Positions 11,373 to 50,674 of a DNA stretch of 64,000 bases are shown here, piece after piece; within the stretch, counting starts at the first letter, position 1; every line of letters starts with the position of its first letter. This DNA comes from Pseudomonadota bacterium (GTDB taxonomy: Bacteria > Pseudomonadota > Gammaproteobacteria > Burkholderiales > REEB80): the NCBI GenBank assembly GCA_028873515.1, contig JAGWIG010000010.1, forward strand, positions 5,642-69,641, written 5' to 3'. The translations under genes and the position numbers were made by a program. The notes below the pieces were generated by a model, which had not been told where the DNA came from, did no database searches, and worked only from the letters and a program-made list of their open reading frames with translations.

Positions 11373-11927
11373 ATGAGCCTTTCCATCCGAAATGAAACCA
11401 CACAGGCAGAACCGGCTAGTTTATCGAGAAAAATTTCCTTCCGATCCACTTTGCTTCTGCTGACCATGGGGGCGTTCGCAACCCTTGTCCAGGCAGGTTT
11501 ACGCTTTCCCTTACACATTCCAGGCCACCAGGGGTTAATATGGATGGCCATTTTAATCTATGCACGCATGAATTCATCCTATCGTTTTTCAGCAGTCATA
11601 TGTTCTGTTGGAGCGGCATCAGTGTCTCCTTTTCTGGGATTTCATGATCCCTTCGCAGCATTTTCCTTTATTCTCTCCGGGCTTGCTCTCGATCTGGGTT
11701 TTATAGCCTTTGCACCCAAACGCCTGGGAATGGTTGCGCTTATGGGAGCAGTGGTTTTTCTGGCTCAACCCCTGCTGCAATCCCTCATCATGTCCACACC
11801 GAATGCCTTGTTCCACACTGCAAATTTTGGCCTCCCCTATCTGTTGCTGACTCATCTGGCATTTGGCTTTACCGGCTCTTTGATTGGCCTTGGACTTGCA
11901 AAAACAAAACACATAAATTGCAACTGA
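11373..11927 (+). CDS. Small polytopic membrane protein of unknown function (first gene of the TonB-receptor operon)
   Basis: About 185 aa from ATG 11373 (MSLSIRNE...), with 5-6 hydrophobic helices. Lies 43 nt upstream of the TonB-dependent receptor. No family recognised by eye. Confidence 0.5.
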   Translation: MSLSIRNETTQAEPASLSRKISFRSTLLLLTMGAFATLVQAGLRFPLHIPGHQGLIWMAILIYARMNSSYRFSAVICSVGAASVSPFLGFHDPFAAFSFILSGLALDLGFIAFAPKRLGMVALMGAVVFLAQPLLQSLIMSTPNALFHTANFGLPYLLLTHLAFGFTGSLIGLGLAKTKHINCN

Positions 11928-11970
11928 AACGCCCCTCTTCAATTCAGAACAATAACCCAGGCTACTTATA

Positions 11971-14016
11971 ATGAAAAAAAAACCTTTCCAGATTCGTATT
12001 CTGTTTCTTTTGTTGATCTGCACACTACCTCTTTCCGCCAGAGCCGACAATCCCCGAAATGAAGTTTTTCAGGGCGGCGAAATTGTTGTGTCATCCCATC
12101 GTCCAGTAATAGAACAAGTCAGCACGGTAAGAACCGTTACGGAATCTGAAATCAGAAAAATGGGAGCCACCACGCTTGACGAAGCCATCAACCTGCTTCC
12201 GGGCATCAATATCCGTGTGGGTGGGGATGGCACACCCCGCATCGATCTTCGTGGGTTCGTCACCCGTCACATCAAACTTCTCATCAATGGCGTGCCTTTT
12301 AATTCAACCTATGACGGCCAGTTTGATCCAACCCTGATTCCCGTTGAGTCCATTGCGGAAATCAAACTAATTTCCGGTGGAGCCTCAATGCTCTATGGAG
12401 ATGGTGATCTTGCGGGAGTCATCAACATCATCACAAAAAAAGGTTATGCCCCCCCCCACCTTGATAATGCGGGAGCAGAAACCGGTACTGATGGCTTCAA
12501 TCGGCTTTATGGCTCTGTTGCGGGATCAAAAGGACGAGGAAGCTATTATCTGAGCGCAAGCGAATCGGGGAGGGAAGGCGAACCAGCTTCCTCGAATAAT
12601 GACTATACATTTGGCAAAACAGGAGGCCTGATTTCCAATAGCGATCGCCTGCGTAAAAACCTTTACGGAAACTTCGGCTACCACGTCTCGTCAAAAACGG
12701 CTATTGATCTTACTTTCACACATATTGAAGGGCATAATGGCCTTGCATTACCTGGCATAGACAACAAAAACGATCCTTTTGCACCAACAGTCAAATACGA
12801 ACGCCTGGATCACATTGTCGGCAATACAGTCCAGCTCACTGGGGACTTCAAGCCTGCCCATCGTTTATCCATGCGCTCATGGCTGTACTTCAATACGTTG
12901 ACAGAAGATGACAATAGCTATGATAACGCCAACTATGATACGGTTAGTAATCCTTCTCTTAAAAACACTTTTCTCACCCATAATACGACCCATATTCCAG
13001 GTGCCCATATCCAGTTAAGCTATCATGCCATAAGTTCAGGCACCTTAAGCCTTGCCGCTGATAGCCGCATCGAATACTGGAACCAGACTGGCTTGCTCCA
13101 CAATGTTCCCTTAGGGGGTGGAGGTGGGGGAGGAGGGGGCCACGGAGGAGGCGGTGGGGGAACATATACTTCACAGAACATCAATCTTGCCCGGGAAATC
13201 GGAATCCAGTCCCTTGACCTTGAGTACTCCGTTCATCCTCTTCCCAAGCTGAGCCTGGTTGCAGGTGTCGGCCAATATTGGCAGCGACTGGATAATGATA
13301 GTCACAGAAATGCCCATGGATTTCTTCTGGGTTCTTCCTATCAATGGTTGCCCAGAACACGCTTACGTGCCTCTTTCAGCCGTCATATCCGTTTTCCTGA
13401 AATCCAGCAGCTCTACAATGCCACTTCAGGCGATCCTGGCCTTTTGCCTGAATCAGCCCTGAACACAGAAATAGGGATTGATCATCAAATATTATCCGGC
13501 ACCACTGTCGGGTTGACTCTTTTTCATGATGACGTCCACAACTACATTGAAAAAAACAATACCACCAACTTCTATCAGAACTATGATCATTACCTGTTCC
13601 AGGGAATAGAATTTTCTGGAAAAACACGTTATTTCAAGCGTCTGGAATTAACAGGAACCTATACTTACCTGCAATCAGAAAACAAGTCTTATGCCGCATC
13701 CAGCAATCTGCTGCAATATCGGCCAAGGCATAAGCTTGACCTTTCTGCCGACTATCGTTTCAATCATGGTTATAGCGCTTTCATGTCCATGCTTTTTATC
13801 GCCAACCAGGAATATTTCTCCAATTCAAACCCGACACAAAATGGCCAGCTCAATGGCTATACATTATTCAATATCAAGCTGAACAAACACATTGAAGCCA
13901 CTCACCTGACGCTGTATGTCGGGGCAAACAATCTGTTCGACAAAAATTATGAAACAAGCTATGGTTTTCCTCAGGCAGGCCGGGTAATTTATACAGGCAT
14001 CGAATACGGATTATGA
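11971..14016 (+). CDS. TonB-dependent outer-membrane receptor with internal poly-Gly/His tract
   Basis: Signal peptide and plug domain (TLDEAINLLPGINI, IDLRGF, LINGVP, AGVINIITKKG), with beta-barrel repeats to the C-terminus. GGGGGGGGHGGGGGG insert. Confidence 0.85.
   Translation: MKKKPFQIRILFLLLICTLPLSARADNPRNEVFQGGEIVVSSHRPVIEQVSTVRTVTESEIRKMGATTLDEAINLLPGINIRVGGDGTPRIDLRGFVTRHIKLLINGVPFNSTYDGQFDPTLIPVESIAEIKLISGGASMLYGDGDLAGVINIITKKGYAPPHLDNAGAETGTDGFNRLYGSVAGSKGRGSYYLSASESGREGEPASSNNDYTFGKTGGLISNSDRLRKNLYGNFGYHVSSKTAIDLTFTHIEGHNGLALPGIDNKNDPFAPTVKYERLDHIVGNTVQLTGDFKPAHRLSMRSWLYFNTLTEDDNSYDNANYDTVSNPSLKNTFLTHNTTHIPGAHIQLSYHAISSGTLSLAADSRIEYWNQTGLLHNVPLGGGGGGGGGHGGGGGGTYTSQNINLAREIGIQSLDLEYSVHPLPKLSLVAGVGQYWQRLDNDSHRNAHGFLLGSSYQWLPRTRLRASFSRHIRFPEIQQLYNATSGDPGLLPESALNTEIGIDHQILSGTTVGLTLFHDDVHNYIEKNNTTNFYQNYDHYLFQGIEFSGKTRYFKRLELTGTYTYLQSENKSYAASSNLLQYRPRHKLDLSADYRFNHGYSAFMSMLFIANQEYFSNSNPTQNGQLNGYTLFNIKLNKHIEATHLTLYVGANNLFDKNYETSYGFPQAGRVIYTGIEYGL
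13114..13160 (+). repeat. G-run-rich low-complexity tract (four G5 runs) encoding Gly8-His-Gly6
   Basis: Sequence GGGGGtGGaGGtGGGGGaGGaGGGGGccacGGaGGaGGcGGtGGGGG read directly on the sense strand of the receptor gene. Confidence 0.9.
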
Positions 14017-14017
14017 C

Positions 14018-14743
14018 ATGCGCTTTTTAGTAAGCATTGACGATACAGATAATCTGGACAGTCCAGGAACTGGAGAAGTTGCTCAGTGGCTGCGTGAGCA
14101 CCTTGAGTGCATGAAACTCGCCAAAACAACGTTTATTACGCGTCATCAGCTTTTCATTCACCCGGATATAGCCTATACATCACATAACAGCAGCATGTGT
14201 TTTATTGCCGAGGCCATTGCCCCGCTAAACACCATTATTCCGGTTATGGCATCAAAAATCAGGGAATTTTCCTCCCTTGATTCTGATCCCGGTCTTTGTA
14301 TTGCCAGCCTGGATAGCCTCCAACATCCAGAAGAACTGGTTGCTTTTGGAAAAGCTGCCAAAACCGAAGTCCTGAACAAAGACATGGCGTATGCCCTTGC
14401 CCTTAAAACAGGAGCTCATCTTTCAGAACACGGCGGGGATGGAAGTGGCGTCATTGGTGCCCTGGCAGGTGCAGGATTGCGTCTTTCCGGCGAAGATGGC
14501 AAGCTGCGGGGCAGCCTTTCTTTCAGCCAAACCCTTATATCAGTTTCAAAAATAAGGATACATCCAGATATTCAGGATATCCGAACCCTTTCCCATGAAA
14601 CCATTACCGATGATGAACTGGTCGAAATTGTCGACAAACCTAAAACGGTCATGCAGGAAGGCAAAGCGGTATTACTTCTTACGCATTGCGAGGCCAGCAG
14701 GAACTGGCGCACCCTGACGCGAAAGGAACTGAAAAATTACTGA
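14018..14743 (+). CDS. Stand-alone TiaS-TCKD-like (Thr18-Cyt34 kinase domain-like) protein, function unknown
   Basis: 241-aa ORF starting 1 nt after the receptor stop. N-terminus MRFLVSIDDTDNLDSPGTGE matches the archaeal TiaS MRxxVGIDDTDS...T18 signature as I recall it. Further similarities: RHQLFIHPDIAYTSHNSSMCF, DPGLCI, GSGVIGALAGAG. Comparison is from memory, not from an alignment. Confidence 0.5.
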   Translation: MRFLVSIDDTDNLDSPGTGEVAQWLREHLECMKLAKTTFITRHQLFIHPDIAYTSHNSSMCFIAEAIAPLNTIIPVMASKIREFSSLDSDPGLCIASLDSLQHPEELVAFGKAAKTEVLNKDMAYALALKTGAHLSEHGGDGSGVIGALAGAGLRLSGEDGKLRGSLSFSQTLISVSKIRIHPDIQDIRTLSHETITDDELVEIVDKPKTVMQEGKAVLLLTHCEASRNWRTLTRKELKNY

Positions 14744-18551: not shown

Positions 18552-18975
18552 GGTATCTACCCTCTTCTACCTTACACTAGCCATTTCTGATGAATTTAAG
18601 CATTCAACCAGAAATCGGAAGCCACATTACCTGTGACAGAGTTTTACATTCTGGAACACCCTTTTCAACTACCTGTGCCTTATGCACCTGACTGGGATAA
18701 AAGCGGAATTCCTGAAAATTTCCTATTAAAACCAGGGTGACACCTGAATTTGATAGCCACTTTTGAGAGTTTCCCGGAATTTTGAAGATACGTTCATGAA
18801 ATTCCCACATTTACTGAGTCCGGCTGGACCCATTGATAACACAGGCCTGCATCCAGGTCACTTTAGGCCATGTTACAAAATCCGGCCGATAATTTCATCA
18901 GGACTTCATTCATGGCTACCTTTATCCTTAGGCAACCTGACAATAGCACAACCACCCTTTTATAGATCCCATCCA

Positions 18976-19953
18976 TCATCCTTGTCCATTTCCGTTATCA
19001 AGAATGGCCTTCCTGATAGCCTTTGCCAGTTCATCAGGCATAAACTTCGCAACATATCCATCTGCACCCACGCTTTTGGCGTGAGATTCATTGGCTGATC
19101 CAGACAGGGAGGAATGAATGACGACAGGAATTTCCTTCAGGCTATCACTTTCCTTAATCTGTCTCGTCAAGGTAAATCCATCCATTTCCGGCATTTCAAG
19201 ATCTGTCAACACAAGAGCAATCTTCTGGCAGGCAGGGATACCGGCAATTTTGGCTTCCTGCTCCAGCTGCTGAAGACGCACAAAAGCTTCCTTGCCAGTT
19301 TTAGTACCAATAAAGGGCAACTTGAGGTGGGTCAATGTCTTTTCAATCTGGCTCCGCGCCACCGCGGAATCATCGGCATAGAGAATAACAGATCCTTGAG
19401 GAATAGAGATAGCTTCAATCGGACTCAGTTCATCTCCCCCCTTGAACCGGGTAGGCAAAACCTGACGTAGAATCTGCTCGACATCCAGAACAAGCGCAAG
19501 ACGCATCTCATCTGCATTCTCGCCAAGCCGGGCAAGACTGGTGACCATACCCCCAACGGCCGCACCCTCCGCTGACAAAACCTGGTTCCATTCCAGCCGG
19601 GTAATCTCCTCGACTTCTTCTACGGCAAAACCATGGATGGAACGCTCATACTCTGTCACAAGCAGAATATTCCGCCCTGTCGGCTTACAGCCAACCACCG
19701 CGGGAAGATCAATGACGGGGATGATCTGACCCCGGATATTAGCCACCCCCATGACATGCTGCGGAGCACCTGGCATGGGGGTAATGACAGGCATCACCAG
19801 CGCCTCACGCACCTTGAACACATTGATGCCAAACAGCTCCTGGGTACCACTGTTCTGATCAACCCCCAAACGAAAAATCAGCAGTTCAAATTTATTGGTT
19901 CCAGCAAGATTGGATCGCTCATCAACTTCCTGCAAAACATGACTCATGTTCAA
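18976..19953 (-). CDS. cheV: Chemotaxis coupling protein CheV (CheW-like domain + receiver domain)
   Basis: N-terminal CheW-like region (FGINVFKVREA..., IRGQIIPVIDL) and C-terminal REC (ILYADDS..., VLTDLEMPEMDG, K at GYVAKF). Confidence 0.85.
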   Translation of the reverse strand: MNMSHVLQEVDERSNLAGTNKFELLIFRLGVDQNSGTQELFGINVFKVREALVMPVITPMPGAPQHVMGVANIRGQIIPVIDLPAVVGCKPTGRNILLVTEYERSIHGFAVEEVEEITRLEWNQVLSAEGAAVGGMVTSLARLGENADEMRLALVLDVEQILRQVLPTRFKGGDELSPIEAISIPQGSVILYADDSAVARSQIEKTLTHLKLPFIGTKTGKEAFVRLQQLEQEAKIAGIPACQKIALVLTDLEMPEMDGFTLTRQIKESDSLKEIPVVIHSSLSGSANESHAKSVGADGYVAKFMPDELAKAIRKAILDNGNGQG

Positions 19954-19959
19954 CTCTCC

Positions 19960-21210
19960 TTATCTCCTGACGGCCGCTTCACGCAACCGGTCAAGCTTTT
20001 GCAAAATATCCTGCTCAAGGCGAACCAGTTCTGTACTTTGACGGATGGCCTCCTCACGGTTTCCCGATTCAAGGTTTATGAGCACGTTCTTCCCAACCTG
20101 ATGCACCTGGATATGGGGTGAATCCAGTTCCTTGAAATCTGGCAAATCACCAAAGAGTTCGCGACCTATGCCGTCATACCATTTGCCAAAATAACAGTGA
20201 TGATGATCTGGCAGATCCGATTCATTCATGAAATCATGGGTTTTGGTGACCTCTTCACGTACGCGGTTAATAAAGATTTGATGACTCTGCTTGACGGCAT
20301 CGACAAACATGGTCATGGCCAACCCGTTTAGTCCCTGGACGCGTTGATTGTGCTGGAAGGCCAAGGCCTCCGCCCCTTGAACCCTCTGGTAAGCAATCTG
20401 GCTCGTGCCTGCAATATCTTTCGCAGAATCGTCGATGGCCGCAATATTGCTTTGAACTTCTTCCGTTGCTACCTGAACCCGTTTGGAGAGACTACGGACC
20501 TCATCAGCCACTACAGCAAATCCTCGGCCATGTTCTCCAGCCCGGGCTGCCTCAATAGCCGCATTCAGGGCAAGAAGATTGGTCTGATAGGCAATTTCCC
20601 GGATTGTCTGGGCAATGCGCCCAATCGTCCCGACCTGGGTAATAAGACCCTCGGATGCCTTCCGGTTTTCCATGATGGATTGCTGGATATCATGGAGCGT
20701 GCTCCCTACTTCATCCATACTTTGCTGGGCTTCCCTGGAAGTATTGATCAATGTAGCACCCTGGTTGGATACCTTACCGATCAACGTGTTAATGGTATCA
20801 ATTGCAAAGCGTTCCGCAGTCCTATCCCTCCAGGAAACATGAAAAGCGATAATCTGACCAGCCTCATCCTGAAGGGGGCTAAAAATCAGGGAAAACATCA
20901 CATCATCCCGGCATAATTCGGTTTGATGAAATTTCATCTTTTTTTCAATCAAGGTTCGAAATATATTCCGTATCCGATCAGGTTCCTTATGAAACTGATG
21001 AATGGAAAAGGTAGAGGACTGCTGTACCTCTGTTCCTGTCAGCCTGACATGGAGAGATGGATAATAAAAATCCAGGCTCTTCAGTGCTGCCTCGTTCATA
21101 TACAAGATCCTGTTTTCCATGGCTGGATCATTTTCAACCAGCATTTCCAGTGTATCGAACGAATCAAGCAGTTGCTGGATCCAGCTCATGCTGCTGCTTT
21201 CAATGGCCAT
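19960..21210 (-). CDS. Soluble methyl-accepting chemotaxis protein: PAS-like N-domain, short MA signalling domain, C-terminal CZB (chemoreceptor zinc-binding) domain
   Basis: Canonical tip [37 protein letters not shown]-terminal CZB signature SHQIF...[10 protein letters not shown]...SPHIQVHQ. No TM helices. Confidence 0.8.
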
Positions 21211-21236
21211 CCTGTTCTCCTGAAAAAATCATCCAA

Positions 21237-21995
21237 TCAGCGTGAAATAGCTGTTCCGACATTTAACCCGTCAAACCAGTCGAGAAATCGCTGTACATTG
21301 GTACCGCTATAAATGGCCCCATGCTGTGGGCATAGATACTGGATATCGAGTTTGGAGACCCGGTTAATCCAATCCCTTTTCGCTTCATTGGAAGGCATCC
21401 AGCGTTGATGAAAATATCTGGCCTTCTGAATATGATCATCAAAGGATTTCGCTTCATCGCCACCCATCCTGCGATTCACCCAGGCATCATGCCCAGGCTG
21501 CAATATTGCCGCCCCCACATCTCCAGAAAAAAACACCTTGGCTTCAGCGTCATAGACATGAAAATTGGCTGAAGCATGAAGGTAATGGGCAGGAATAAAT
21601 TCCAGTTTGCGGTCACCAATAAAAAGCTCTCCCCCATCATCTGGAATTCCGCACAAAACTGCCTCCAGCGCGCCATAATGACGAATGAATCCTTCCCACA
21701 GGCTAGGCACATGCCACTGGATCTGGTCGTTGCAGGCATTCCACAAAGGCAGGCTGGAGGCAATATCCGGATCCTGATGAGAAACGAAAGCAGCCTTGAC
21801 GGCAGCAATAGGTACCACTTCCACCATTGCAGTAAACACATAGGGAAAAATTTCGAAACCGCCAGGATCGAGTATGATGGCCTGTCCATTGGATTCCATG
21901 ATATAAACGTTGGAATCAATCACCCGACGTTCATCCTGATCATAGATCATCCACCAGCGATGACTACCCTGTTCAAAAACGGGCGCCACTTTCAT
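21237..21995 (-). CDS. Metallo-beta-lactamase-fold di-iron protein, ODP-like (flavodiiron N-domain-like, no flavodoxin domain)
   Basis: 252 aa. Ligand-like motifs SHQDPD (HxDxD), AHYLHASANFHVYD, FFSGDVG and CPQHG are collinear with the flavodiiron/ODP di-iron site. Embedded in a che operon. Confidence 0.6.
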   Translation of the reverse strand: MKVAPVFEQGSHRWWMIYDQDERRVIDSNVYIMESNGQAIILDPGGFEIFPYVFTAMVEVVPIAAVKAAFVSHQDPDIASSLPLWNACNDQIQWHVPSLWEGFIRHYGALEAVLCGIPDDGGELFIGDRKLEFIPAHYLHASANFHVYDAEAKVFFSGDVGAAILQPGHDAWVNRRMGGDEAKSFDDHIQKARYFHQRWMPSNEAKRDWINRVSKLDIQYLCPQHGAIYSGTNVQRFLDWFDGLNVGTAISR

Positions 21996-22593
21996 GTAGT
22001 ATCCTTTCGAGTTGTTTGCTATAGGAACGTATGCTCTGGGCGACCGTAGACACGGCCTGACCCATTTCCCTTGAGACGCTGACCAGTGGTGCTCCCGAGT
22101 CTATGGACAAGGCCGCCTCAATGCGGCCATTTGTCACGATGTACTCCTGTTCGGCAATACTTTCCTGCATTCTGCCTGCGGCATGGATAACCTTTTTGAG
22201 AATGACTAAAGCACAACCTTCCTCTATAGCTATCCTGCCTGCCAAATTCATTCGAGTATTTTCCAGGGCAGGACTGGTTTTACCCTTTCGGTCCAGTTCT
22301 TCAATCATGGTCTGAAAAATCACCAGGTAGCGTCGATTCTGCATGATATGCATATGGGCCTGAATCAGCGGGGCAATACATTCATGCAGCAGAAGACCTG
22401 ATTTAGTAAGAAATGTAGCCCGTTCGCGAAACGCCTGAGCGACCACGCCGTAACCTGCCAGCGCACTGCCATGACGCTTGACCAGAACCATGGCATTAAG
22501 GGCACGGCGGTCAATTTCACGGAGGGATTTTTCCAGGGTACGCAGCACAAGGTGAGAATCATCCACCAGTTCCATCAAATCTTGGATATTCAT
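21973..22593 (-). CDS. 206-aa protein with two degenerate MCP hairpin-tip-like motifs (sensor-less mini-receptor-like)
   Basis: aa 26-59 IDRRALNAMVLVKRHGSALAGYGVVAQAFRERA resemble the canonical tip [30 protein letters not shown]. aa 153-187 TNGRIEAALSIDSGAPLVSVSREMGQA form a second weaker copy. The ATG overlaps the cheA stop, and the 3' end overlaps the ODP-like start by 23 nt. Confidence 0.45.
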   Translation of the reverse strand: MNIQDLMELVDDSHLVLRTLEKSLREIDRRALNAMVLVKRHGSALAGYGVVAQAFRERATFLTKSGLLLHECIAPLIQAHMHIMQNRRYLVIFQTMIEELDRKGKTSPALENTRMNLAGRIAIEEGCALVILKKVIHAAGRMQESIAEQEYIVTNGRIEAALSIDSGAPLVSVSREMGQAVSTVAQSIRSYSKQLERILHESGARF

Positions 22594-24635
22594 CAGGCAA
22601 TTCCTTGCTGTCTGGAATGGACCATCTTCATCTGCTCGATTGCCCTGGATATCAGCGTTCCAGGATCCAGAATAAGCACCACATCCCCTTTGCCAGATAT
22701 CGTGGCCCCCTGATACCAGCTTCCCATCTTGTCTTCGGGAAGAAAATCAATTGGTTTGACTACAGAATCCTCATTACCCAACACTTCAGAAGCCATGAAA
22801 AGTCCGCGATCAGTGAGAATGCCTTCCACGGGTTCACCTTCAAGCCTCAGTGGCCTGTCATGGAAAAGGTTGCCCAGATCCACAATAGGAGTCACCCTTG
22901 AGCCACTGATCTGATAGACCGTACGTCCATCCAAATGGTGTATAAGCCCTTTCTGGATATCGATAAGGCTTTCTATCGCAGAAATGGGCAAGGCATAGAT
23001 ATCCCGGCGTAAACGAAGATAAAGCACGGGTAGCACCGCCATGCTCAGGGGGAACTCCATGGAAATGGTGGTTCCTTCGCCAAGGCGGGTCTGGACATCA
23101 AGATGCCCCCGAAGCTTGCGCGCCGTATCTTTGACCACATCCATCCCAACCCCCCGTCCGGAAAGATCGGTGGCCTTGTCCTTGGTGGAAAATCCAGGGC
23201 GGAAGATGAGTTCCAGCGCCTCCTGTTCTGACAGGCACGCCGCTTCTTCACCAGTAATCACTCCCTTGGCAAGCGCCTTCTGGACAAGAAACCGTCGATC
23301 GATTCCTCGCCCATTGTCCGAGACTTCAATCCGTACCTTGTCGCCCAGATGAACTGCAGCAATACGGATGCAGGCTTCCCTCGGTTTACCAGCAGATTGA
23401 CGTTCTTCGGGCTTCTCAATCCCATGATCCAGACTATTACGAACAAGGTGGGTAATAGGACTGGAAAGGGCGTCAACGACCGTTTTGTCAATTTCCACCT
23501 CTTCACCTGCAATATCCAGTCTCACTTCCTTGCCCAATTGCCTGGAAGCGTCCCGTACCGCACGCGGCAACTGTTGAAACAACCGCTTGCAAGGCTGCAT
23601 CCTAAGATGCATAACCGTATTCTGGATATCATTGACAGTGAGATCCATTTCCCTGGAAATACGGCTCAGGTCTTCATTGACCTGAACCAGACTTCCCACG
23701 GCAGAAGCCAGCCTATTCCGTAGCAGCACCAGTTCACCTACCTGGTTAATCACTGAATCCAGGCGCCCTGAATCAACCCGGATAGTAGTCTCCGACATAT
23801 CAGAAACAGAAGGGGGTCTTCTCGGTGGCAAAGCACTATCTAATGAGGGAGATTTAGCTGTTGACCGGGTTTTTTCCGGTGTCGATGAACCAGTACCCTG
23901 GGTCATTACTGCTAAAGGGACAGGTTCAGGACTGATGCTGTGAAAAAACTGTTCAAGAACCTGATCATGATCATGTTGCTTGCCGGGAATCCGTGATTCT
24001 GTGCCCCTGTACGTACTGGAAAATGGCAGATCCCCCCTGGAATGATTACCTGTCTTTTCATCCAGCTTCAATTCCCAGCCATCAGGCCCACCATCGCTTT
24101 CATTACTGGACGCCAATTTTTCCGATTCAGACGAAACCCCAGATGAAAAAGCCTGTAATTGCACAACGAATGTCGAAGTCGGGTGGGCTGGGGAGTCCTG
24201 TCCATTTTCTTCAATCCCGGCTCCCAATAAGCTATCGTCTGACTCAAGAGCCGGAAAATGTCCTGCAGCAAGTTCCCGAATCCGTCTTGAAAGTTCTTCA
24301 GGCCCATGGGCAGGATGATTTCCTTGAGCGAGCTCTTCAAGCATGACGTGAATCACATCCATGCCGTTCAGTATGGTATCAATCATGATCCGGGTAACCG
24401 GGAGGACATGGGAACGAAGCTTGTCGAGCAAGTCTTCAAGGTGATGTGTCCATTCAACAAGATTGTCTGCCTCGAGAAACCCGGCGCCCCCTTTCAGGGT
24501 ATGAAAAGCGCGGAAGACTGATGCCAGAATCCCATCATCGCCAGGATCGTTCTCAAGACGAAGTGTGTCCTCCTGGGCTTTTTCCAGAAGCTCCCTGGCC
24601 TCAGTCAGGTAGTCTTGCAGTATTTCCTCATCCAT
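22593..24635 (-). CDS. cheA: Chemotaxis histidine kinase CheA
   Basis: Hpt FHTLKGGAGF, N-box HLVRNSLDHGIE, G1 DNGRGID, G2 GRGVGMDVV, and a C-terminal CheW-like P5 domain. Confidence 0.9.
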   Translation of the reverse strand: MDEEILQDYLTEARELLEKAQEDTLRLENDPGDDGILASVFRAFHTLKGGAGFLEADNLVEWTHHLEDLLDKLRSHVLPVTRIMIDTILNGMDVIHVMLEELAQGNHPAHGPEELSRRIRELAAGHFPALESDDSLLGAGIEENGQDSPAHPTSTFVVQLQAFSSGVSSESEKLASSNESDGGPDGWELKLDEKTGNHSRGDLPFSSTYRGTESRIPGKQHDHDQVLEQFFHSISPEPVPLAVMTQGTGSSTPEKTRSTAKSPSLDSALPPRRPPSVSDMSETTIRVDSGRLDSVINQVGELVLLRNRLASAVGSLVQVNEDLSRISREMDLTVNDIQNTVMHLRMQPCKRLFQQLPRAVRDASRQLGKEVRLDIAGEEVEIDKTVVDALSSPITHLVRNSLDHGIEKPEERQSAGKPREACIRIAAVHLGDKVRIEVSDNGRGIDRRFLVQKALAKGVITGEEAACLSEQEALELIFRPGFSTKDKATDLSGRGVGMDVVKDTARKLRGHLDVQTRLGEGTTISMEFPLSMAVLPVLYLRLRRDIYALPISAIESLIDIQKGLIHHLDGRTVYQISGSRVTPIVDLGNLFHDRPLRLEGEPVEGILTDRGLFMASEVLGNEDSVVKPIDFLPEDKMGSWYQGATISGKGDVVLILDPGTLISRAIEQMKMVHSRQQGIA

Positions 24636-24849
24636 GACTCTATCCCTGATTTAAATTCGCTCATATTTTTCGGCGGCAGGCAGGTATCGCCACAAGCATT
24701 TGTCCAGCCTTCGACATGCTCTAATAAATCTTGAGTAAAAATCAGCTTGAAAAGAATGTATGTGCAGCTTTCTTGCGCCATATCACTTTTCTTGGCCATA
24801 TTTATATGGAATACACTGAGGAATAATAAAACAGCATTGATCAGCATAG

Positions 24850-25237
24850 GGGGCAGCATTAAGCTGCGCCCCTGCCACACCACCTGGCTCCACCATGCGG
24901 TCCAAGAAGTTGAGATCATGTAAATCTCGGAATGCCAAGGCTGTCGAAATAGCTTACCGTAAAGACTTTGTTCAAGACGGAATTGGTGGAATTCGATGGG
25001 ATGGTGAGCATGACCAGGTCATCTCATGTGAACTATCCGCCCAGGCTGGCGGTATCCGTGCTGGTGAACAGTCTCAAATGGGTATCCAGCCGGATGATCC
25101 GCAAAAGGAATATCCGTGTATCCGAAAGCAGCCATGGGGCGGCGCATTGTGGCGCCATCTTGTTTTGCGGCCTCGTGCGACGGCGCACCAATTGCCATCA
25201 TTCACCAGTATATCAAGCAACGGCAAATGCCTGAATA
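24850..25237 (+). pseudogene. tnpA: IS200/IS605-family Y1 transposase (TnpA) remnant, multiply frameshifted
   Basis: Pieces of TnpA appear in three frames: ...HVNYPPRLAVSVLVNSLKWVSSRMIRK... (frame of 24968), ...PWGGALW... (frame of 24895), ...SCFAASCDGAPIAIIHQYIKQRQMPE* (third frame, stop 25235-25237). A weak HTTW...(YHxVW-like) piece lies near 24875. No intact ORF. Confidence 0.6.
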
Positions 25238-25451
25238 AACTAACAACAGGGATACCTGCGGTATCCGCGCTATTCATTTCCCCTCCCTGAGCGGCGAGGA
25301 TCGACGCGCAATCCCTTAAAATAAAACAGACCTTTCAAAACTGGACAGGAGGCATGAATAATCCGAAATGCATACCAAATTGATCTAAGTCATTTGATGG
25401 ATAAAATTTCTGGAATAGAATTAATTCAAGAATCTTGGCTATCTCCCAAAT

Positions 25452-25525
25452 GACCGCACCCCCGCGGTCTAATGCGGCCGCCCCCGGCGGCCTATCTTGA
25501 CCGCTCCCCGGCGGTCTTTTTTTTT
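25452..25525 (+). repeat. Array of three GC-rich 18-nt hairpins (period 23-24 nt), the last followed by T9
   Basis: GACCGCacccccGCGGTC (25452-25469), GGCCGCCcccGGCGGCC (25476-25492), GACCGCtccccgGCGGTC (25499-25516) then TTTTTTTTT (25517-25525). The last unit looks like a rho-independent terminator. Confidence 0.8.
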
Positions 25526-25729
25526 GCCGGCCTCCCAGAGGCTTCGGACATTTAGATAAAATTCGTGTTTACCCTGAAAAGGAATATGTAGGCCAGTTAG
25601 TTACACTATCAATTCAGGTCCGCGAAAAGATTCAGCCAATAGTACGTAATAGTGATCCAGAACAAAAGAACCATGACCCATCCCGGTTAAAATCAAACGA
25701 TAATAAACTTGTTCGGTATTCTCCTATTA

Positions 25730-25754
25730 GGCCGCCACCCCGCGGTCTTTTTTT
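25730..25754 (+). repeat. Fourth copy of the GC-rich hairpin, followed by T7
   Basis: GGCCGCcaccccGCGGTC (25730-25747) plus TTTTTTT. Same consensus GRCCGC-N-CCCC-N-GCGGYC as the array at 25452-25516. Confidence 0.75.
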
Positions 25755-25923
25755 ACCTGGGGATAAAACAATGCTTATATGAAAGGGCTAGCCAATGCTC
25801 TATCTACATAACATGATAAGGATCAATAAGTTAACATTATTTTCACGACCCATGGTGAATAATGTTCAAATGGATGAGCCATGAACTCTTAGCTGAGCGC
25901 AGCTTATCTATAACAGGAGTTTT

Positions 25924-27465
25924 ATGATCAATAGGCAATTTATGGGCCATAACCAGAAAATTCCGATGACACAAGCTTTAACTACCATTGCTTTGAAGCA
26001 ATTATCCGGATTATTTTCTGAACTTCCCTTGATTATTCATTATCACGATAAATTTACTGATTCCTATCTTACAGTCGATAACCCCAAAAAAAATGACCTC
26101 TGGCAAATTTCGGTCTCTGGATTGGTGCAATCCGTAAATTTCGAAAAATTCGACAAACCCCTGCGATTTGTCATGAAACACTGGTTTAATCATCAACTGC
26201 AAAATTATGCCATCAGTACTGCTATAACCAGGTTTGACCGTATAAAAAAAATCCCGGCATCTGACTTGATACAGGTCGTATTATCTTCACCTAAAACGAT
26301 AGGTTCTATCTGGCAATCATTCCTGGCCAGGGAATTTCACGTCCTGACACTGGATAGCCTCAAAAATATCCTCAACTTTTTCTGCATATCCAATATCGGA
26401 AACTGGTCATCAGGTTCTTCGCATTATCTTTCCGAACTCCCCATTCCTGTCATGGACAGATATACATCCATACAGACTGGCAACATTTTCCTGAGCGGGG
26501 CCGAAGAGGCGATCCTTGTTGCCCATTTCAATGAAATGTCAAAGAATATGATTCACAATCCCGGTTCGATATCAGATCAAACCCTGAGGGAAACCACCCT
26601 TCTTGTATGCTCTTATCAGTTTGGACTCTGGCCTGTCCAGATTGGGATGTTACAGCTGCAGGATATTCGAATCTGGAATGAGGCTGGAGAGACCCACCCT
26701 TGCGTCCACCTGACCTTCAAAAGAGTAAGACAGCGACTCCCGGCCCGATCCATGCCCCTATGCCGCAAGGTTAAGCAGGAATGGGGTATCCTTTTTACCG
26801 AGCTTTACAAACGCGCAGAAAGAAAAGGGCTCAAGGAAAGCGATCGTGTTTTTCAGACCCGAAGCGCCAAGGAAACAGCACAAATCCTTACCAGGACAAC
26901 AGGAAGGTTACTGCCTGCAAGCAGGAGTGCCTCCGTATTGCGCCATACGGCCGCTAAACGATTAGTCAACGCAGGACTTAGCCATGAGGAACTTGCTGAA
27001 TTTATGGGGCATCATTCCGCCCATTCCAGTCAGGTCTATTTTCAAACCATGACCCATCATGCAGAACGGGTGAACAATGCACTTGGAATATTTGACAGCA
27101 GGCAACCTGATGCAAAAATTCTCCATGACCATTTTATCAGCTACAGGGAACTTGCCGCACTCGATGCTACACAGCAAATAGGTGGGGCTCCACATGGCCT
27201 GCTTATTTCCGGGATTGGTGGCTGTAAAACAGGCCAGCCTTCCTGCCCTTACAACCCGGTCATCGCATGTTATGGATGCCCCCGGTTCATGCCTCTCAAC
27301 GAGTCAAAAATTCATGAAAAAGTTCTTTCTGATTTTAGATCTGTCGTGACTTTTTTTTCCAGGACCTGTCAGGGAAGCCTCGATTCCCCAGCCTTCTTGC
27401 AGCTCAAAAGGACCTTTTCTGCCATTCTTGCAATAATTGCCGAAATTGAAATGGATAAAAAATGA
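25924..27465 (+). mobile_element. Large tyrosine-recombinase-like protein (513 aa) with C-terminal Cys cluster, first of a pair
   Basis: RBS AGGAG before the ATG. C-terminal catalytic-domain pattern ...VLRHTAAKRLVNAGLSHEELAEFMGHHSAHSSQVYF (R-H...GH...Y). Box I-like LLVCSYQFGLWPVQIGMLQLQDI. Cys cluster GGCKTGQPSCPYNPVIACYGCPRF. Confidence 0.65.
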
Positions 27466-29753
27466 ACCAGTTTTACAAATCTTTTATAGAGTCCGGTTTG
27501 AAGCTTGCTAAAGACCATGATATAAAATGGGAAATGTTTCTCAGGCCGGATGGCTCCGTAACCAGGAAAAACATCTGGAACCTGACCAAAATAACAAACA
27601 GCCCTTCACCCCCAAGCTATTGCATCCATGATTTAGGGTCAGATAACCGAACCCTGGAGATCCTCAATATCCAACGCCAGCAGAAACATCTGCCTATATA
27701 CGAAAAGAAACCCCTTTCATCAGCGTGGCTTGATTTCATAAAAGCAGCGGTTCTGAATCAGCTATTCTTGCGCAACTTCACCGCGAATCATGTATTGACC
27801 CAGATTTGTCGACCATTACGGGTACTGGCTACATGCACACCCCATGAGCCATGGGAACTACTCGCTGAAGATATTACGCTCGCTCTAGGCATTGCCAATA
27901 CGCTTCAGGCTTCAGGCCATCTGGCTCAATGCATAAACATCGTTACCCGCAGCATTATCGATACTTACCATATTGCTGATATTGGGCCTCTTTATCCCGC
28001 CCTGCCTTCAATTTCCGAGGAAAGGAAGAATGTCCACCACTCCAGGCAGACCTATTCGGGTGACAGGTTTCAGCCCAGCCTTGAAACAATCAAAAAAACA
28101 CAAAGCCTGCCCGAACACCAGGCTTTTTTGGAGCTGGTTAGAATTGTGTTTACTGAACAGCCCAGAACCTTTATGGATCATCTGCGTTTTGCCCAGGTCA
28201 AGATCATGCTGCTATGCGGTATGCAGACTGCAGATATCAGCCTCCTGCCTGAGGACTGGAAAAGACAACAGGATTTTTACACACCATCTGGACAACTGGC
28301 TGGTGAACATGGAGGTTATTCTCAAGCCATGTTCCTGCAACATTTTTTTGAAAGGCATCAGGCAGGGAATTCAGGTGGCACTGCTCTTTACGAAGCCCGA
28401 AAATATGTACCAGCAATATTTGAGCAGGATGTGGTTCAGACGCTCGACAGTATCGCCCGGCTCACTCAACCGTTACGCCAAACCCTGCGCAGGCAAATGG
28501 AAGAAAACCGTATCCTGCCCTGGTTTCACCAGGACGAACTGGTTCTGGCCATCAAGCTCTACCCCTATCTGACGGGTAACCCGATATTAGTCTCAGGTAG
28601 CCCTGACGAACACGAATTTCCTTCACGCTACCAACAGTCTCTTGACCCTGGCTTGTTCAACGAGCTTCACAAAACCCAACTTGCCATGGCTGGTACAGCC
28701 AGGCTGAACATGTCACTTTATGTCTATTTCAACCGCATGAAAGGTAAAGTTACCTTCCGAAAGTCCGATGGCACACCCTGGCATGGCTTACGCATGAAAT
28801 GGGACGAGGTATTTCTAAGAATTGATGAGGTTGAAAATTACCTCGCGCGGGAATCCGCAACCAAGCACTCCAGTCTAACCTCCCTCCCAACGTCAACAGG
28901 AAAGCTGGAGCCCTGGAAACTGATGTTTCTCATGCCCATCCGTGCCTTGATAGAAACTCGCAATGAAGGACTATGTGATATCACACGGTATTTTGCAGTA
29001 GGCAGGATGGATTCGAGAATGGTACAGCACTCCCTGTCAGGAAACCAGTCTGGAGTACAGGGCCTTTTTGAGGCTTATGGCCGGACCGATGAAGATCGAA
29101 GTCTGGCTTTAAATGCTCATTCTCTCAAACATCTGCAGATCACAGATTCCTTTTACCCAAAAATAATCAGGATGGTTCTTCTCCAAAAACTACACCCGCA
29201 CAATCTTAAACATATACATGAAAACCACCCCTATGCTTTTGCAGACAGACGGGAGCAGATTAACCTCCCCAGTGGGGCTGAAAAAATCATGGGAGAAAAA
29301 GTATTGGCAGTTGCGAAACTAATCAAGGCTGGTAAAGCAGATAATCCCATTGTGCAAACCTTCAAGAAAATCCAGAAAACTCAAGGTGAAGCAGTTGCTT
29401 TAGCCTTTCTCGGAACCGAGGCTAGCGGTTTCCATGCCACTCCTTATGGATACTGCATAACGAGCCTGACCTCTGAACCCTGCCCCAAATACCTGGAATG
29501 CTTTGCAAACTGTCGTCATCTGGCAGCCAGTAACCTTTCCGAAAATGGGCGTCATCTCACCACATTGAAAAACCGCTTTGAGAAAGCACTGGTCGACGCC
29601 CTGAACCGCCCAGCCGAATCCATAGGCAGGGAAAACCAGATAATGCACATCAAGGAAAGGTTAGGTGCAGTGCAAACCCTGCTAGCCTCGGTAAACATGA
29701 ACTCGACCATTTTGAAACAACCCCCGCCTGCATGCAGCGAATTCCAGTCCTGA
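27462..29753 (+). mobile_element. Second large tyrosine-recombinase-like protein (763 aa), Tn554-TnpB/BIM-like partner
   Basis: ATGA overlap with the upstream gene. Box I-like IMLLCGMQTADISLLPEDW. AHSLKHL...ENHPYAF resembles HxLRH...Y. Cys cluster YGYCITSLTSEPCPKYLECFANCRHL parallels that of the first protein. Family assignment is by eye. Confidence 0.5.
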
Positions 29754-34567: not shown

Positions 34568-35602
34568 TCAACAATTCAATAATTCAATAGATCTGGCATG
34601 ATCATTGCCGCTACATCCGACAATGCAGTTTTTTCCCTGAATTTTAGCCTGGTACATACGTTGATCAGCCAGGCTGACCAAAGCCGACCCATGGGTAATA
34701 TTATCCGTAAGCCATTCAGCAACCCCAAAGCTATATGTCTGAATGGTAGCATCCGGTTTTTGTACGGCAGGGCAGCGTTCGCGAATGAACTCCTCAGCCC
34801 CCTTACCATTTGTATGTGGCAAAAGGAAAACGAATTCCTCACCACCCCATCGCAGGATGATATCACTGCTACGCAAGGTTTCCTGCCAGGCATCCGCCAC
34901 CTGAACCAGCAACTGGTCTCCAGCATCATGCCCATGGTTATCGTTAATCTGCTTGAAATTGTCCAGATCCACGAAAACCAGTGCCAGAGGGTAATGATGG
35001 CGGCGTGCCAAAGCCAGTTGAAGTGCAATCATTTCGATTCCGCTTCGACGGTTGAACACCCCGGTTAACGGATCAATGACGGACTGGGTAAACAGGTTAT
35101 GCATTAATTGTAACTGGCTTATGGACGACAGTATCCCTACAGTCGCGACCAGGATTAACAGCCAGAATACGGCTATGGCCTTGAAATCCGGAATCATGTA
35201 TGTATGGGACGTAATCATTGGAAGTGAGGAGATAAGCAGCAATGGCAGGACAAATGCAATACTTTCCCGTATCGTCAATGGGAAAATACTGATGCCTGCT
35301 ACCATCACAAAAGGGAGAAAAGCATAACTGCTGGCTGCAATCATTCCTGTTTTACTCATCAAGGTGTTAGAAAGTATCAGATGTGAGAACAGGAAAAACA
35401 AAGAGGGGATGGAGAAAAGGATAACGAGGGCCCAGTAAGCATGCTTAAGGGAAATTGCGCGGCGACAATAAAACACCAATCCAGTGAAAGCGAAACTGGC
35501 AACGATACGCCCGAAGGCAAGGTTGACCCATGCCACATGCGTAAACACCAGCATATCCACGGGAATCCAGAGGGGTGTCAGTACTGCAAAAAGACTGGCC
35601 AT
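34568..35602 (-). CDS. Membrane-anchored diguanylate cyclase (GGDEF)
   Basis: N-terminal region of about 170 aa with multiple TM helices, then a GGDEF domain (DPLTGVFNRR, RWGGEEFVFLL). Confidence 0.8.
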   Translation of the reverse strand: MASLFAVLTPLWIPVDMLVFTHVAWVNLAFGRIVASFAFTGLVFYCRRAISLKHAYWALVILFSIPSLFFLFSHLILSNTLMSKTGMIAASSYAFLPFVMVAGISIFPLTIRESIAFVLPLLLISSLPMITSHTYMIPDFKAIAVFWLLILVATVGILSSISQLQLMHNLFTQSVIDPLTGVFNRRSGIEMIALQLALARRHHYPLALVFVDLDNFKQINDNHGHDAGDQLLVQVADAWQETLRSSDIILRWGGEEFVFLLPHTNGKGAEEFIRERCPAVQKPDATIQTYSFGVAEWLTDNITHGSALVSLADQRMYQAKIQGKNCIVGCSGNDHARSIELLNC

Positions 35603-36196: not shown

Positions 36197-36799
36197 CTAT
36201 GAAAGGCTGTGCAGATATGCTGCCAGTTCCCTCATCTCATGGGTGTTGAGGCCCTGAGCCACCTTTTGCATAACAGGGTTGCTTCGATCACCCGATTTGA
36301 ATGCCATCAACTGTCGAATAATATACTCGCTTTGCTGCCCTGCAAGCCTCGGGAAAGAACCTACTCCCTGGGCATGAACTCCATGGCAGGCAGCACAGGC
36401 TGGAACATTAGCTGCAGCAACGCCGTCATGAAAAATCTGCTCGCCTCCCGAAACTTCTTCCATAGGCATGGGTGTGCCTGGAGCTGGCGGCAGGCTTGCA
36501 TAATACTTGGCCAGACTGTTAATGGTTGAATTATCCAATTGTGCAGCCATGCCCCACATGTAAGCCTGCGCGTCTGGGTCAGTCCGGCTCTGATTATGAA
36601 AAGCCTTGAGCTGTGCTTCAAGATAAGACGCATTTTGTCCCGCAAGACGGGGGAAAATTGGAGAAACACTGACTCCCTGAGGGCCATGACAGGATGAACA
36701 AACTGTATTGGCAAGGGTTGTAGCACTTTCTTGAGCAATCGCAGGTTCTGCCAGGACCAAAAAGCCAAGAGCTGTATATAACATAGCTTGTTTTAACAA
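36197..36799 (-). CDS. Dihaem cytochrome c4
   Basis: Signal peptide and two CxxCH motifs (CSSCHG, CAACHG), each followed by a ...M... axial-ligand region. 200 aa. Confidence 0.8.
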   Translation of the reverse strand: MLKQAMLYTALGFLVLAEPAIAQESATTLANTVCSSCHGPQGVSVSPIFPRLAGQNASYLEAQLKAFHNQSRTDPDAQAYMWGMAAQLDNSTINSLAKYYASLPPAPGTPMPMEEVSGGEQIFHDGVAAANVPACAACHGVHAQGVGSFPRLAGQQSEYIIRQLMAFKSGDRSNPVMQKVAQGLNTHEMRELAAYLHSLS

Positions 36800-50014: not shown

Positions 50015-50674
50015 ATGCGTATCCTACTTGTAGAAGATGATCCCATGATCGGTGAGGCTATCAAGGTTGCTTTGAAAGATGCAGCCTATGCAGTAGATTG
50101 GGTTAAAAACGGAACATCAGCCAATCAAGTGTTGGAAAGTGGAGAGTATCAAGCAGTGTTACTTGATTTGGGCTTGCCCAAACGCGACGGGCTGGAAGTG
50201 CTACGTTTATTGCGCCAAAGGCGAAGTCACATACCTGTCATCATCATTACCGCCCGAGATGGAGTTGAAAACCGCATTAAAGGACTAGATACCGGTGCTG
50301 ATGACTATCTTGCCAAGCCTTTTGATATCAATGAACTACTTGCCCGATTGCGGGCCGTCATTCGACGTCAAGGGGGAAATGCCTCCCCAATACTCAGCAA
50401 TGGTCTAATAAGCCTCAATCCAGCGACGCGGGAGGCGCAATGTTCGGAAGGTGCACACTTATTGAGCGCACGAGAATTTTCCCTGCTCTATGCATTATTA
50501 TTACGACCCGGAGTAATTTTAACCCGTACCGAACTTGAAGAACACATCTATGGCTGGAATGAAGAAGTAGAAAGCAACGCTGTAGATTTTCTCATCCACA
50601 GCATACGGAAAAAACTAGGGATGAATTCCATCAAGAATATCCGAGGTGCTGGCTGGATGGTTACAAAACCATGA
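50015..50674 (+). CDS. OmpR-family response regulator (QseB/BasR-like)
   Basis: MRILLVEDD..., LLDLGLPKRDG, K at YLAKPF, and a winged-helix C-terminus (IRGAGWMV). Confidence 0.9.
   Translation: MRILLVEDDPMIGEAIKVALKDAAYAVDWVKNGTSANQVLESGEYQAVLLDLGLPKRDGLEVLRLLRQRRSHIPVIIITARDGVENRIKGLDTGADDYLAKPFDINELLARLRAVIRRQGGNASPILSNGLISLNPATREAQCSEGAHLLSAREFSLLYALLLRPGVILTRTELEEHIYGWNEEVESNAVDFLIHSIRKKLGMNSIKNIRGAGWMVTKP

Follow-up and report, generated by a model that had tools for sequence, protein, structure and literature searches.

A putative cytoplasmic chemosensory cassette with a di-iron oxygen-binding protein, a miniature receptor-like protein and CheV, found in Proteobacteria and Acidobacteriota

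[quoted passage not shown] The mini-protein encoded between cheA and the ODP gene is given the working name P4. The five products probably compose a wholly cytoplasmic chemosensory complex, synthesised from one translationally coupled operon, that reports O2, Fe(II) and redox state for taxis. A preliminary description of this DNA had proposed to look for their order in relatives; of 70 species-level loci that encode a relative of P4, nearly all show it. The arrangement is far beyond chance.

The open reading frames (ORFs) of the cassette are all intact. The features discussed below are as follows.

22593..24635, minus strand: cheA, 680 aa, domains assigned with Pfam and NCBIfam
21973..22593, minus strand: P4, 206 aa, all-helical and soluble, with a variable loop at residues 103-107
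21973..21995, minus strand: P4/ODP dual-coding overlap of 23 nt, 3' end of P4 and 5' end of the ODP gene
21237..21995, minus strand: ODP, 252 aa, metallo-beta-lactamase fold, PF19583
19960..21210, minus strand: receptor, 416 aa, MCPsignal and C-terminal CZB domains (Pfam)
20806..21210, minus strand: receptor aa 1-135, Aer2-type PAS, assigned from a family profile against the PDB
20311..20805, minus strand: receptor aa 136-300, MCP signalling (MA) domain, PF00015 at 1.4e-29
19960..20310, minus strand: receptor aa 301-416, CZB zinc-binding domain, PF13682 at 8.7e-14
18976..19947 (ORF open to TTG 19953), minus strand: cheV, 323 aa from ATG 19947

At 22593 the stop codon of cheA has one base in common with the start of P4 (TGATG), P4 and the ODP gene overlap by 23 nt, and gaps of 26 nt and of 6 nt (TTG start) or 12 nt (ATG 19947) separate the ODP gene from the receptor gene and the latter from cheV. 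The likely start of cheV is ATG 19947 rather than TTG 19953, as it is preceded by a Shine-Dalgarno sequence (AAGGAG) and agrees with an independent gene call of 323 aa. The preliminary description had listed the same five co-directional genes, overlaps and gaps, the last being 12 nt instead of 6 nt if the ATG is used, and its identification of cheA and cheV is borne out by their Pfam domains. The 1-nt and 23-nt overlaps point to coupled translation. Transmembrane segments are absent from all five proteins, and since every component is predicted to be soluble any array that they build would be cytoplasmic.

The survey of loci took one genome per species, and gene order was checked by phmmer with the window proteins. 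Of 63 loci, 52 retain the 1-nt overlap between cheA and P4; of 65 loci, 61 retain the 23-nt overlap between P4 and the ODP gene. The hosts are Acidithiobacillus, Igneacidithiobacillus, many Terriglobia and Bryobacterales (Acidobacteriota), Acidihalobacter, an Ectothiorhodospiraceae metagenome-assembled genome (MAG), together with a few unclassified MAGs of Proteobacteria. The cassette had initially been presented as a proteobacterial version of an ODP system; proteobacterial copies do exist, but Acidobacteriota hold most of the species-level copies found, and in more than 30 acidobacterial species the five-gene core stands alone. The host of the window is a Ferrovum-related betaproteobacterium, its IlvC being 83-85% identical to that of Ferrovum and about 100% identical to that of a 'Burkholderiales bacterium' MAG; none of the named P4 homologs retrieved by a word-indexed search comes from Ferrovum itself. 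Acidithiobacillus, Acidihalobacter and the Ferrovum relative are acidophiles. Among betaproteobacterial, acidithiobacillial and acidobacterial copies the identities are 72-75% for ODP, 70-76% for CheV, 60-63% for CheA, 49-55% for P4 and 43-47% for the receptor. Such high identity across phyla, with between-group values about equal to the lowest within-group ones, indicates that the cassette probably moved horizontally as a unit among acidophilic bacteria and bacteria of iron-rich habitats.

At the level of sequence the 252-aa protein is securely an ODP family member, given its near-full-length match to solved ODPs and its invariant His/Asp motifs. It matches Pfam PF19583 with 3.4e-64 (216.8 bits, cutoff 27.2) and, over residues 6-248, the solved ODPs of PDB access codes 6QRQ (4.5e-54) and 6QNM (3.7e-43); the match to flavodiiron proteins is weak (1e-5). 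ORF 21237-21995 therefore belongs to the ODP clade where it had provisionally been placed. The motifs HQDPD (73-77), PAHYLH (135-140), SGDVG (157-161) and PQHGA (223-227) correspond to those of solved ODPs. Their metal-site residues H73/D75/D77, H137/H140, D159 and H225 align to the 6QRQ motifs and are invariant in 66 of 66 orthologs. Individually these residues are presumably the iron ligands, as in the published structure. The di-iron site thus appears intact, and binding of Fe(II) and O2 is predicted.

P4 belongs to a family of about 391 proteins in the word-indexed search, nearly all of 205-209 aa, devoid of Pfam domains and mostly labelled hypothetical, with a few records carrying the label 'chemotaxis protein'. 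An exhaustive profile search of 1.84 billion representatives gathered the family in 51 clusters (50% identity), none of which is a long MCP. Two near-invariant motifs, EIDRRALNAMVLVKRHG..AGYGVVAQAFRE (motif 1, residues 26-57) and EQEYVVTNGRIEAAL..GAPL.RVS.EMG.AV (motif 2, residues 148-181), flank the variable loop, where an insertion of 23 residues is tolerated. Outer-tier relatives (P0151-P0171) are 197-213 aa long and match P4 over its full length. Where P4 has motif 1 they display a near-canonical receptor tip, ALNAILLAKRAGxxAxGFGVLSxELR, and where it has motif 2 they read ARxAKIEAAYGG...L.QVS. Their matches to Pfam MCPsignal (PF00015) range from 4e-9 to 3e-5, and two of them exceed the gathering cutoff (36-37 bits compared to 34.6).

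The close-family P4 profile matches the receptor tip weakly (E 0.003), and the link to MCPs emerges only when the profile is broadened by adding distant representatives to the close family. With the broadened profile, hhalign aligns P4 residues 1-76 to the receptor tip region (receptor residues 184-259) with 97.6% probability (E 3.6e-12). Its best matches in the PDB are Tm14 (3G6B/3G67, 4.7e-12), Tm1143 (6.5e-9) and Tsr (3.7e-8). The Tm14 tip fragment that was co-crystallised with CheA-P4P5 and CheW (3UR1, 4JPB) aligns to P4 residues 11-90, and the N, R, G and F/Y positions of the tip motif are retained. Judged from these profile alignments, the N-terminal segment of P4 (about 76 residues) is homologous to the chemoreceptor tip that contacts the kinase and CheW. 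The earlier suggestion of a tip-like mini-protein is thus supported by profile-profile comparison, with Tm14 as the best solved match, but it finds neither a direct MCPsignal match nor a hairpin in structure prediction, and formal membership of P4 in the MCP signalling family appears borderline.

Several observations weigh against the assignment of P4 to the receptors. P4 alone has no Pfam or NCBIfam match, and neither its sequence nor the close-family profile retrieves an MCP from the PDB at E<10. The hhalign alignment replaces the central Gly of the canonical G-x-x-G-x-G turn, and the tip motif is centred at about residue 45 of 206, off-centre unlike in Tm14. Two AlphaFold2 (AF2) models (predicted local distance difference test scores of 86.1 and 92.6, predicted template modelling scores of 0.75 and 0.82) place helices at 3-102, 108-162 and 168-204, with no U-turn, no break at 42-47 and a continuous helix through the tip motif. 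P4 accordingly lacks the MCP hallmark of one long antiparallel hairpin with a central tip and matched arms. A Foldseek search of the PDB with both models returned no MCP; the matches, which give no reliable indication of topology, were helical bundles of a generic kind, de novo maquettes and proteins similar to BAR domains.

Two folds are thus predicted for P4. Tip homology predicts a U-turn at residues 42-47, and this turn would make P4 a closed bundle of four helices, about 39, 55, 55 and 37 residues long, with two adjacent tips. The AlphaFold models predict an open form, contrary to that expectation. In any antiparallel topology motifs 1 and 2 lie side by side, because each is about 60 residues from the loop at 103-107. 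Mean-field direct coupling analysis of 199 P4-family sequences (effective number 63) gave peaks near the expected anti-diagonals (i+j of about 87, 207, 215 and 327-346), with z < 2.1 and implausible control pairings scoring higher. An origin of P4 by tandem duplication of two tip hairpins is suggestive, not established: its N and C halves are not significantly similar (E 0.075 in the close family, 0.0095 in the broad family), and the C half aligns motif 2 to the receptor tip in register, IEAA with IEAA, but with E 6.7e-4 and 27% probability.

A more far-reaching proposal, which we put forward only tentatively, is that P4 represents a family of miniature receptors that has escaped recognition. 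A single chain of 200 residues would hold two hairpins of tip origin, the first, at about 3-100, canonical-like and the second, at about 108-204, diverged and carrying the RIEAA motif. Packed next to each other, they would imitate the tip of a receptor dimer, with one face docking into the CheA-P5/CheV lattice and the other binding ODP. With the Aer2-PAS/CZB receptor, the cassette would then be a mobile three-sensor O2/Fe(II)/redox taxis unit exchanged between iron-oxidising acidophiles and peat-soil Acidobacteriota. Such a single-chain tip, if real, would let a soluble di-iron sensor plug into an array built from a different receptor.

The association of P4 with ODP extends beyond the five-gene cassette. 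All four distant mini-MCP relatives of P4 that were looked up are encoded directly upstream of an ODP gene, and the named hosts of this distant group are Betaproteobacteria such as Azonexus. P4 has the traits of Tm14- and TDE2496-type receptors in being small, soluble, free of transmembrane segments and of any other domain, and encoded next to an ODP. According to the literature (PMC7666581, PMC7319448, PMC6978683), Tm14 is the Thermotoga receptor paired with ODP. The ODP neighbour and the position of Tm14 as nearest solved relative together point to P4 as a counterpart of the ODP-cognate receptors. The two-gene P4-ODP pair is a conserved core able to occur without a dedicated cheA; distant pairs that are not beside cheA are found at L072:2-6280 and L071:3-1893. 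In two contigs the distant pair has a gene of the nitronate monooxygenase (NMO) family upstream, and in one contig haemerythrin, TusA/DUF2249, NnrS and SirB genes follow downstream. The NMO, haemerythrin and NnrS neighbours suggest a nitric-oxide or oxygen stress context for the pair.

This conserved core supports P4 as the partner of ODP, yet leaves room for action outside an array, and the pairs lacking cheA imply that the two proteins need not act through a dedicated CheA. P4 could then be a dedicated ODP partner with a relic tip, its motifs 1 and 2 forming the ODP-binding site, and the pair would act on other targets or indirectly on CheA, for instance by delivering Fe/O2 status or buffering it, or by serving as a module for nitrosative or oxidative stress. 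The stress-related neighbourhoods of the cheA-less pairs (NMO, haemerythrin, TusA/DUF2249, NnrS) are in line with this role, as are the two AF2 models without a hairpin at the tip motif, the missing direct MCPsignal match and the side-by-side position of motifs 1 and 2 in any antiparallel fold. In Treponema denticola, too, cryo-electron tomography did not clearly place ODP within the array (PMC7666581). Such a role outside the array nevertheless seems unlikely: in 52 of 63 loci the last base of the cheA stop is also the first base of P4, the five genes are carried as a group across phyla, the tip-aligned region of P4 corresponds to the Tm14 fragment seen in crystals to bind CheA-P5 and CheW, and the N, R, G and F/Y tip positions are retained.

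The preliminary description had assigned to the receptor the architecture PAS-MA-CZB, which holds, and its PAS-like part can be defined more closely. Pfam detects PAS_4 and PAS_9 in the N-terminal domain at subthreshold level only (E about 0.006). A profile built from ten orthologous N-terminal domains retrieves from the PDB the Pseudomonas aeruginosa Aer2 structures 3VOL (1.3e-13) and 4HI4 (7.5e-11), and also the Vibrio PAS-haem domain 6CEQ (1.1e-6). Aer2 PAS domains are recognised by three features: an E-eta His as ligand of b-type haem, an I-beta Trp that forms a hydrogen bond to O2, and a DxT motif (PMC10107281). In the receptor His74 (FHK) and Trp127 (SW) are invariant in the ten aligned orthologs; His74 aligns to Aer2 FHKNP and Trp127 to Aer2 W-x-D-x-T, the window sequence being WRDRT (D129-x-T131). 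From the FHKNP alignment, His74 is presumably the equivalent of the Aer2 haem ligand. The PAS-like region is, on these profile matches, an Aer2-type PAS domain and a predicted haem binder.

The MA domain has about 165 residues (about 13 + 12 heptads), which fits the shortest, 24H-like class when judged by length only. Its hairpin tip AGEHGRGF (224-231) is invariant in 49 of 49 orthologs, and the domain also has MCP matches in the PDB. The CZB domain (PF13682, 52.1 bits compared to a cutoff of 29.4) has the candidate zinc ligands H310, C339, H366 and H370, a complete 3His/1Cys set whose spacing was compared with that of DgcZ. The set is also complete in all 10 other proteobacterial orthologs, but only in 9 of the 38 acidobacterial ones. 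Replacements such as I-S-Y-Y occur in the remaining 29, with no parallel loss of the PAS His and Trp in the ten aligned orthologs. The zinc/redox input thus appears to have been lost repeatedly in Acidobacteriota, and this degeneracy argues against such an input being essential to the cassette.

CheA has the P1/Hpt (aa 4-104), P3 dimerisation (283-343), P4 ATPase (393-531) and P5 CheW-like (537-664) domains. Its phospho-accepting His45, in the motif FHTLKGG, is kept in 57 of 58 orthologs, the lone exception being an alignment gap. Pfam finds no P2 docking domain in residues 105-282 (window positions 23790-24323), where P1 and P3 are joined by a linker of 178 residues rich in Ser, Pro, Gly and Glu. 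P2 is not universal in CheA proteins and its absence leaves the identity of the protein intact. CheV combines a CheW-like domain (33-164, 5e-28) with a receiver domain (190-313, Response_reg 5.5e-14), both from Pfam, whose active site (D193/D194, phospho-Asp251, S/T and K303) is invariant in 57 of 57 orthologs.

CheV is the sole CheW-type coupling protein encoded in the window. The preliminary description had claimed that it supplies both the only coupling and the only receiver function; the former stands within the window, but an OmpR-type regulator (50015-50674), part of a two-component pair at 50015-51969, is a second receiver protein and the only other one. A tblastn search of the window with CheY, CheZ, CheW-domain, receiver, MA, CZB, CheA, ODP and P4 queries yielded no further che-type gene. 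The described lack of methylation enzymes in the vicinity agrees with a Pfam scan of about 38 of the larger window ORFs, which detected neither CheR nor CheB, although no search was aimed at either protein.

The reading in which the five proteins work together as a cytoplasmic taxis complex can be laid out as a sequence of steps. ODP would change conformation upon binding Fe(II)/O2 and relay this change to P4, its cognate transducer and the putative counterpart of Tm14 (Thermotoga) and TDE2496 (Treponema). The tip-like motif of P4 would contact the CheA-P5/CheV layer beside the PAS-MA-CZB receptor. Autophosphorylation of CheA could then integrate three signals, one from haem-O2, one from di-iron Fe(II)/O2 and one from Zn-thiol redox. 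CheV would couple the receptors to the kinase in place of CheW, while its phosphorylation may serve for adaptation or as a phosphate sink in place of CheR and CheB. The output would be phosphotransfer to a CheY encoded elsewhere and, through it, control of flagellar rotation in aerotaxis or Fe(II) taxis.

This flagellar output is proposed on the basis of gene order in Acidithiobacillus. In A. thiooxidans the order is flgE, flgD, flgC, flgB, flgA, flgM, flgN, csrA, fliW, a PilZ protein gene, motB, cheY, cheZ, cheA, P4, ODP, MCP-CZB, cheV and a second MCP-CZB, so that the cassette sits inside the flagellar regulon. Its position after cheY-cheZ makes it most likely that CheY is used for output. 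In Acidithiobacillus copies cheY-cheZ lie directly upstream and a second, PAS-less MCP-CZB gene follows cheV (L074:6992-7899 + 13212-14555; L004:4935-5420 + 11606-12949). These additional genes are absent beside the window and acidobacterial copies. The che genes of A. caldus are RpoF-dependent (PMC6543871). Among 33 acidobacterial loci, 5 (L047, L049, L054, L061, L067) show a full sigma-28 (FliA) consensus, TAAAG-N15-16-GCCGATA, at a distance of 36-46 nt upstream of cheA, compared to 0.6% per locus in shuffled sequence; it is absent upstream of the window cheA. A sigma-54-like TGG-N9-TTG upstream of the window cheA was dropped as a candidate, being not conserved at other loci.

The weak point of this proposal is that the window has neither cheY nor cheZ, not even as remnants in the 1.3-kb stretch before cheA, and that the Bryobacterales copy has neither at its side, the five genes standing alone in both cases; for these organisms the output is a matter of inference. 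The cassette could there, and in Acidobacteriota at large, be unconnected to flagellar steering, phosphorylated CheV or an unlinked receiver protein such as a cyclic di-GMP (c-di-GMP) enzyme carrying the output towards biofilm formation or a microaerobic transition. The missing cheY and cheZ and the lack of a P2 docking domain in CheA would suit this arrangement, and a GGDEF protein whose N-terminal half matches no family is encoded 10 kb away. We consider it quite improbable, in view of the A. thiooxidans cassette embedded among flagellar genes with cheY and cheZ, of the sigma-28-type promoters before cheA in several acidobacterial loci and of the absence of linkage between GGDEF gene and cassette at other loci. 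Ferrovum genomes vary, several of them encoding flagella and chemotaxis genes (PMC7236192). The most economical reading, by analogy with Acidithiobacillus, is that CheA would feed a flagellar CheY encoded elsewhere in the genome. The system had also been described as self-contained and dependent on CheV only, which suits the window and acidobacterial copies but not the A. thiooxidans one.

The cassette is flanked by glucokinase and glucoamylase genes on one side and by a non-coding spacer with an integrase-like ORF on the other.

24636..25923, no strand: upstream boundary of 1.3 kb, non-coding, with three repetitive extragenic palindromic (REP)-like hairpins followed by the divergent integrase-like ORF

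The three REP-like elements (25442-25470, 25489-25517 and 25720-25748) have the form GACCGC-loop-GCGGTC followed by a T run, and two of them score as terminator-like on the plus strand. ORF 25924-27465 (513 aa) has a weak, below-cutoff Phage_integrase match (1.4e-5) and overlaps by 4 nt ORF 27462-29753 (763 aa), which has no family; both are divergent from the cassette. The repeats and these two ORFs may mark the boundary of an island, compatible with horizontal acquisition. Directly downstream of cheV lies a 68-aa ORF (18604-18810), also a gene call in an independent assembly, that has no family match and contains a weak terminator-like hairpin at 18747-18732. The window, scanned for Rfam families and tRNA genes, yielded neither, and a generic scan for sigma-70 promoters and terminators remained at background level.

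These flanking repeats and the integrase-like ORF, together with the cheY, cheZ and second receptor of Acidithiobacillia that are missing here, might be taken to mean that the five genes are a chance juxtaposition or the remnant of a decaying che operon, without coherent function. This is effectively refuted by the integrity of all five ORFs, the conservation of their catalytic and metal-binding residues, the conserved exact lengths of the overlaps and the occurrence of the five-gene core alone in over 30 acidobacterial species.

Farther away, the GGDEF diguanylate cyclase gene (34568-35602), whose product has 170 N-terminal residues that match no Pfam family, is the only gene for a c-di-GMP enzyme among the scanned window ORFs. 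The window also encodes the anaerobic ribonucleotide reductase NrdD (5825-7870) and, at 36197-36799, a dihaem cytochrome c that carries a signature of the cbb3 type; both are compatible with a host that meets low oxygen.

Every domain of the cassette can be assigned to a known family. What is new, as judged from these comparisons, is the P4 family with its off-centre tip and second RIEAA motif, invisible to domain databases; the fixed five-gene cassette, which unites three predicted sensors of O2, iron and redox state with a CheA that lacks P2 and with CheV as only coupling protein; and its distribution and probable transfer across two phyla. The combination is thus unusual, as had been thought, but ODP-receptor pairs were already described and soluble PAS-MCP-CZB is a listed subgroup of CZB architectures (PMC8262984). 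No published description of the cassette was found; the Acidithiobacillus and Ferrovum papers examined name cheA, cheY, cheZ and cheV, not the genes between them. The published studies of ODP-receptor sensing that were found concern one spirochaete and one thermophile only.

The cassette extends the ODP-receptor idea to acidophiles, namely Acidithiobacillus and a Ferrovum relative, and to many Acidobacteriota. The Acidithiobacillus and Ferrovum lineages are known for Fe(II) oxidation, and for iron oxidisers it is a central need to locate the narrow zone in which Fe(II) occurs together with O2. As a compact soluble system of five proteins it could be rebuilt in vitro to learn how an auxiliary metalloprotein controls CheA. 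It also offers a test case for coupling and adaptation by CheV alone, in a pathway without CheW, CheR and CheB, and for the integration of a haem-PAS domain, a zinc-thiol switch and a di-iron centre. The P4 family, of about 200 aa, is a reliable genomic marker for ODP signalling. With 60-75% identity across phyla, the cassette is a clear case of a sensory module that probably moved between phyla with presumed common acidic, iron-rich habitats.

Comparison with known systems places each part of the cassette near a different one. Like Aer2 (McpB) of Pseudomonas aeruginosa and Vibrio, the receptor is soluble and retains the haem His, the O2-stabilising Trp and, in the window, the W-x-D-x-T motif. 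It differs from Aer2 in having no HAMP domain detected by Pfam around the PAS domain (about 135 residues precede MA), a much shorter signalling domain and an added CZB domain. The clusters of F7 type in which Aer2 is found comprise CheB and CheR as well; the window receptor has no CheR/CheB pentapeptide context. The resemblance to Helicobacter pylori TlpD and other soluble MCP-CZB receptors lies in a cytoplasmic receptor with a C-terminal 3His/1Cys CZB domain and in a CheV-reliant pathway without local methylation enzymes. TlpD, however, works with CheW, several CheV proteins and membrane receptors and has no ODP or mini-receptor, and in Acidobacteriota most orthologs of the cassette receptor have lost the CZB ligands.

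All components are predicted to be soluble, as in the cytoplasmic arrays of Vibrio cholerae (cluster I/F9 with DosM) and Rhodobacter (CheA3/A4). Those two systems have CheW, CheR, CheB and long receptors or receptors with a double signalling domain, and nothing similar to P4 or ODP.

The closest parallel is provided by the ODP/Tm14 pair of Thermotoga and the TDE2498/TDE2496 pair of Treponema, in which an ODP is likewise paired with a soluble, sensor-less receptor; in the window the gene beside that of the ODP codes a soluble, all-helical, sensor-less protein of about 200 aa. The published logic for T. maritima and T. denticola is that an auxiliary sensor protein acts on a CheA-controlling receptor (PMC7666581, PMC7319448, PMC6978683). 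Unlike Tm14, P4 is not a full MA hairpin: its tip lies at about residue 45 of 206, a second motif, RIEAA, is found at about 160, Pfam does not see it and AF2 predicts no U-turn. In contrast to the Thermotoga and Treponema pairs, P4 and ODP are set between cheA and a sensor-rich receptor followed by cheV, with fixed overlaps of 1 and 23 nt, and the hosts are acidophilic Proteobacteria and Acidobacteriota rather than Thermotogae and spirochaetes.

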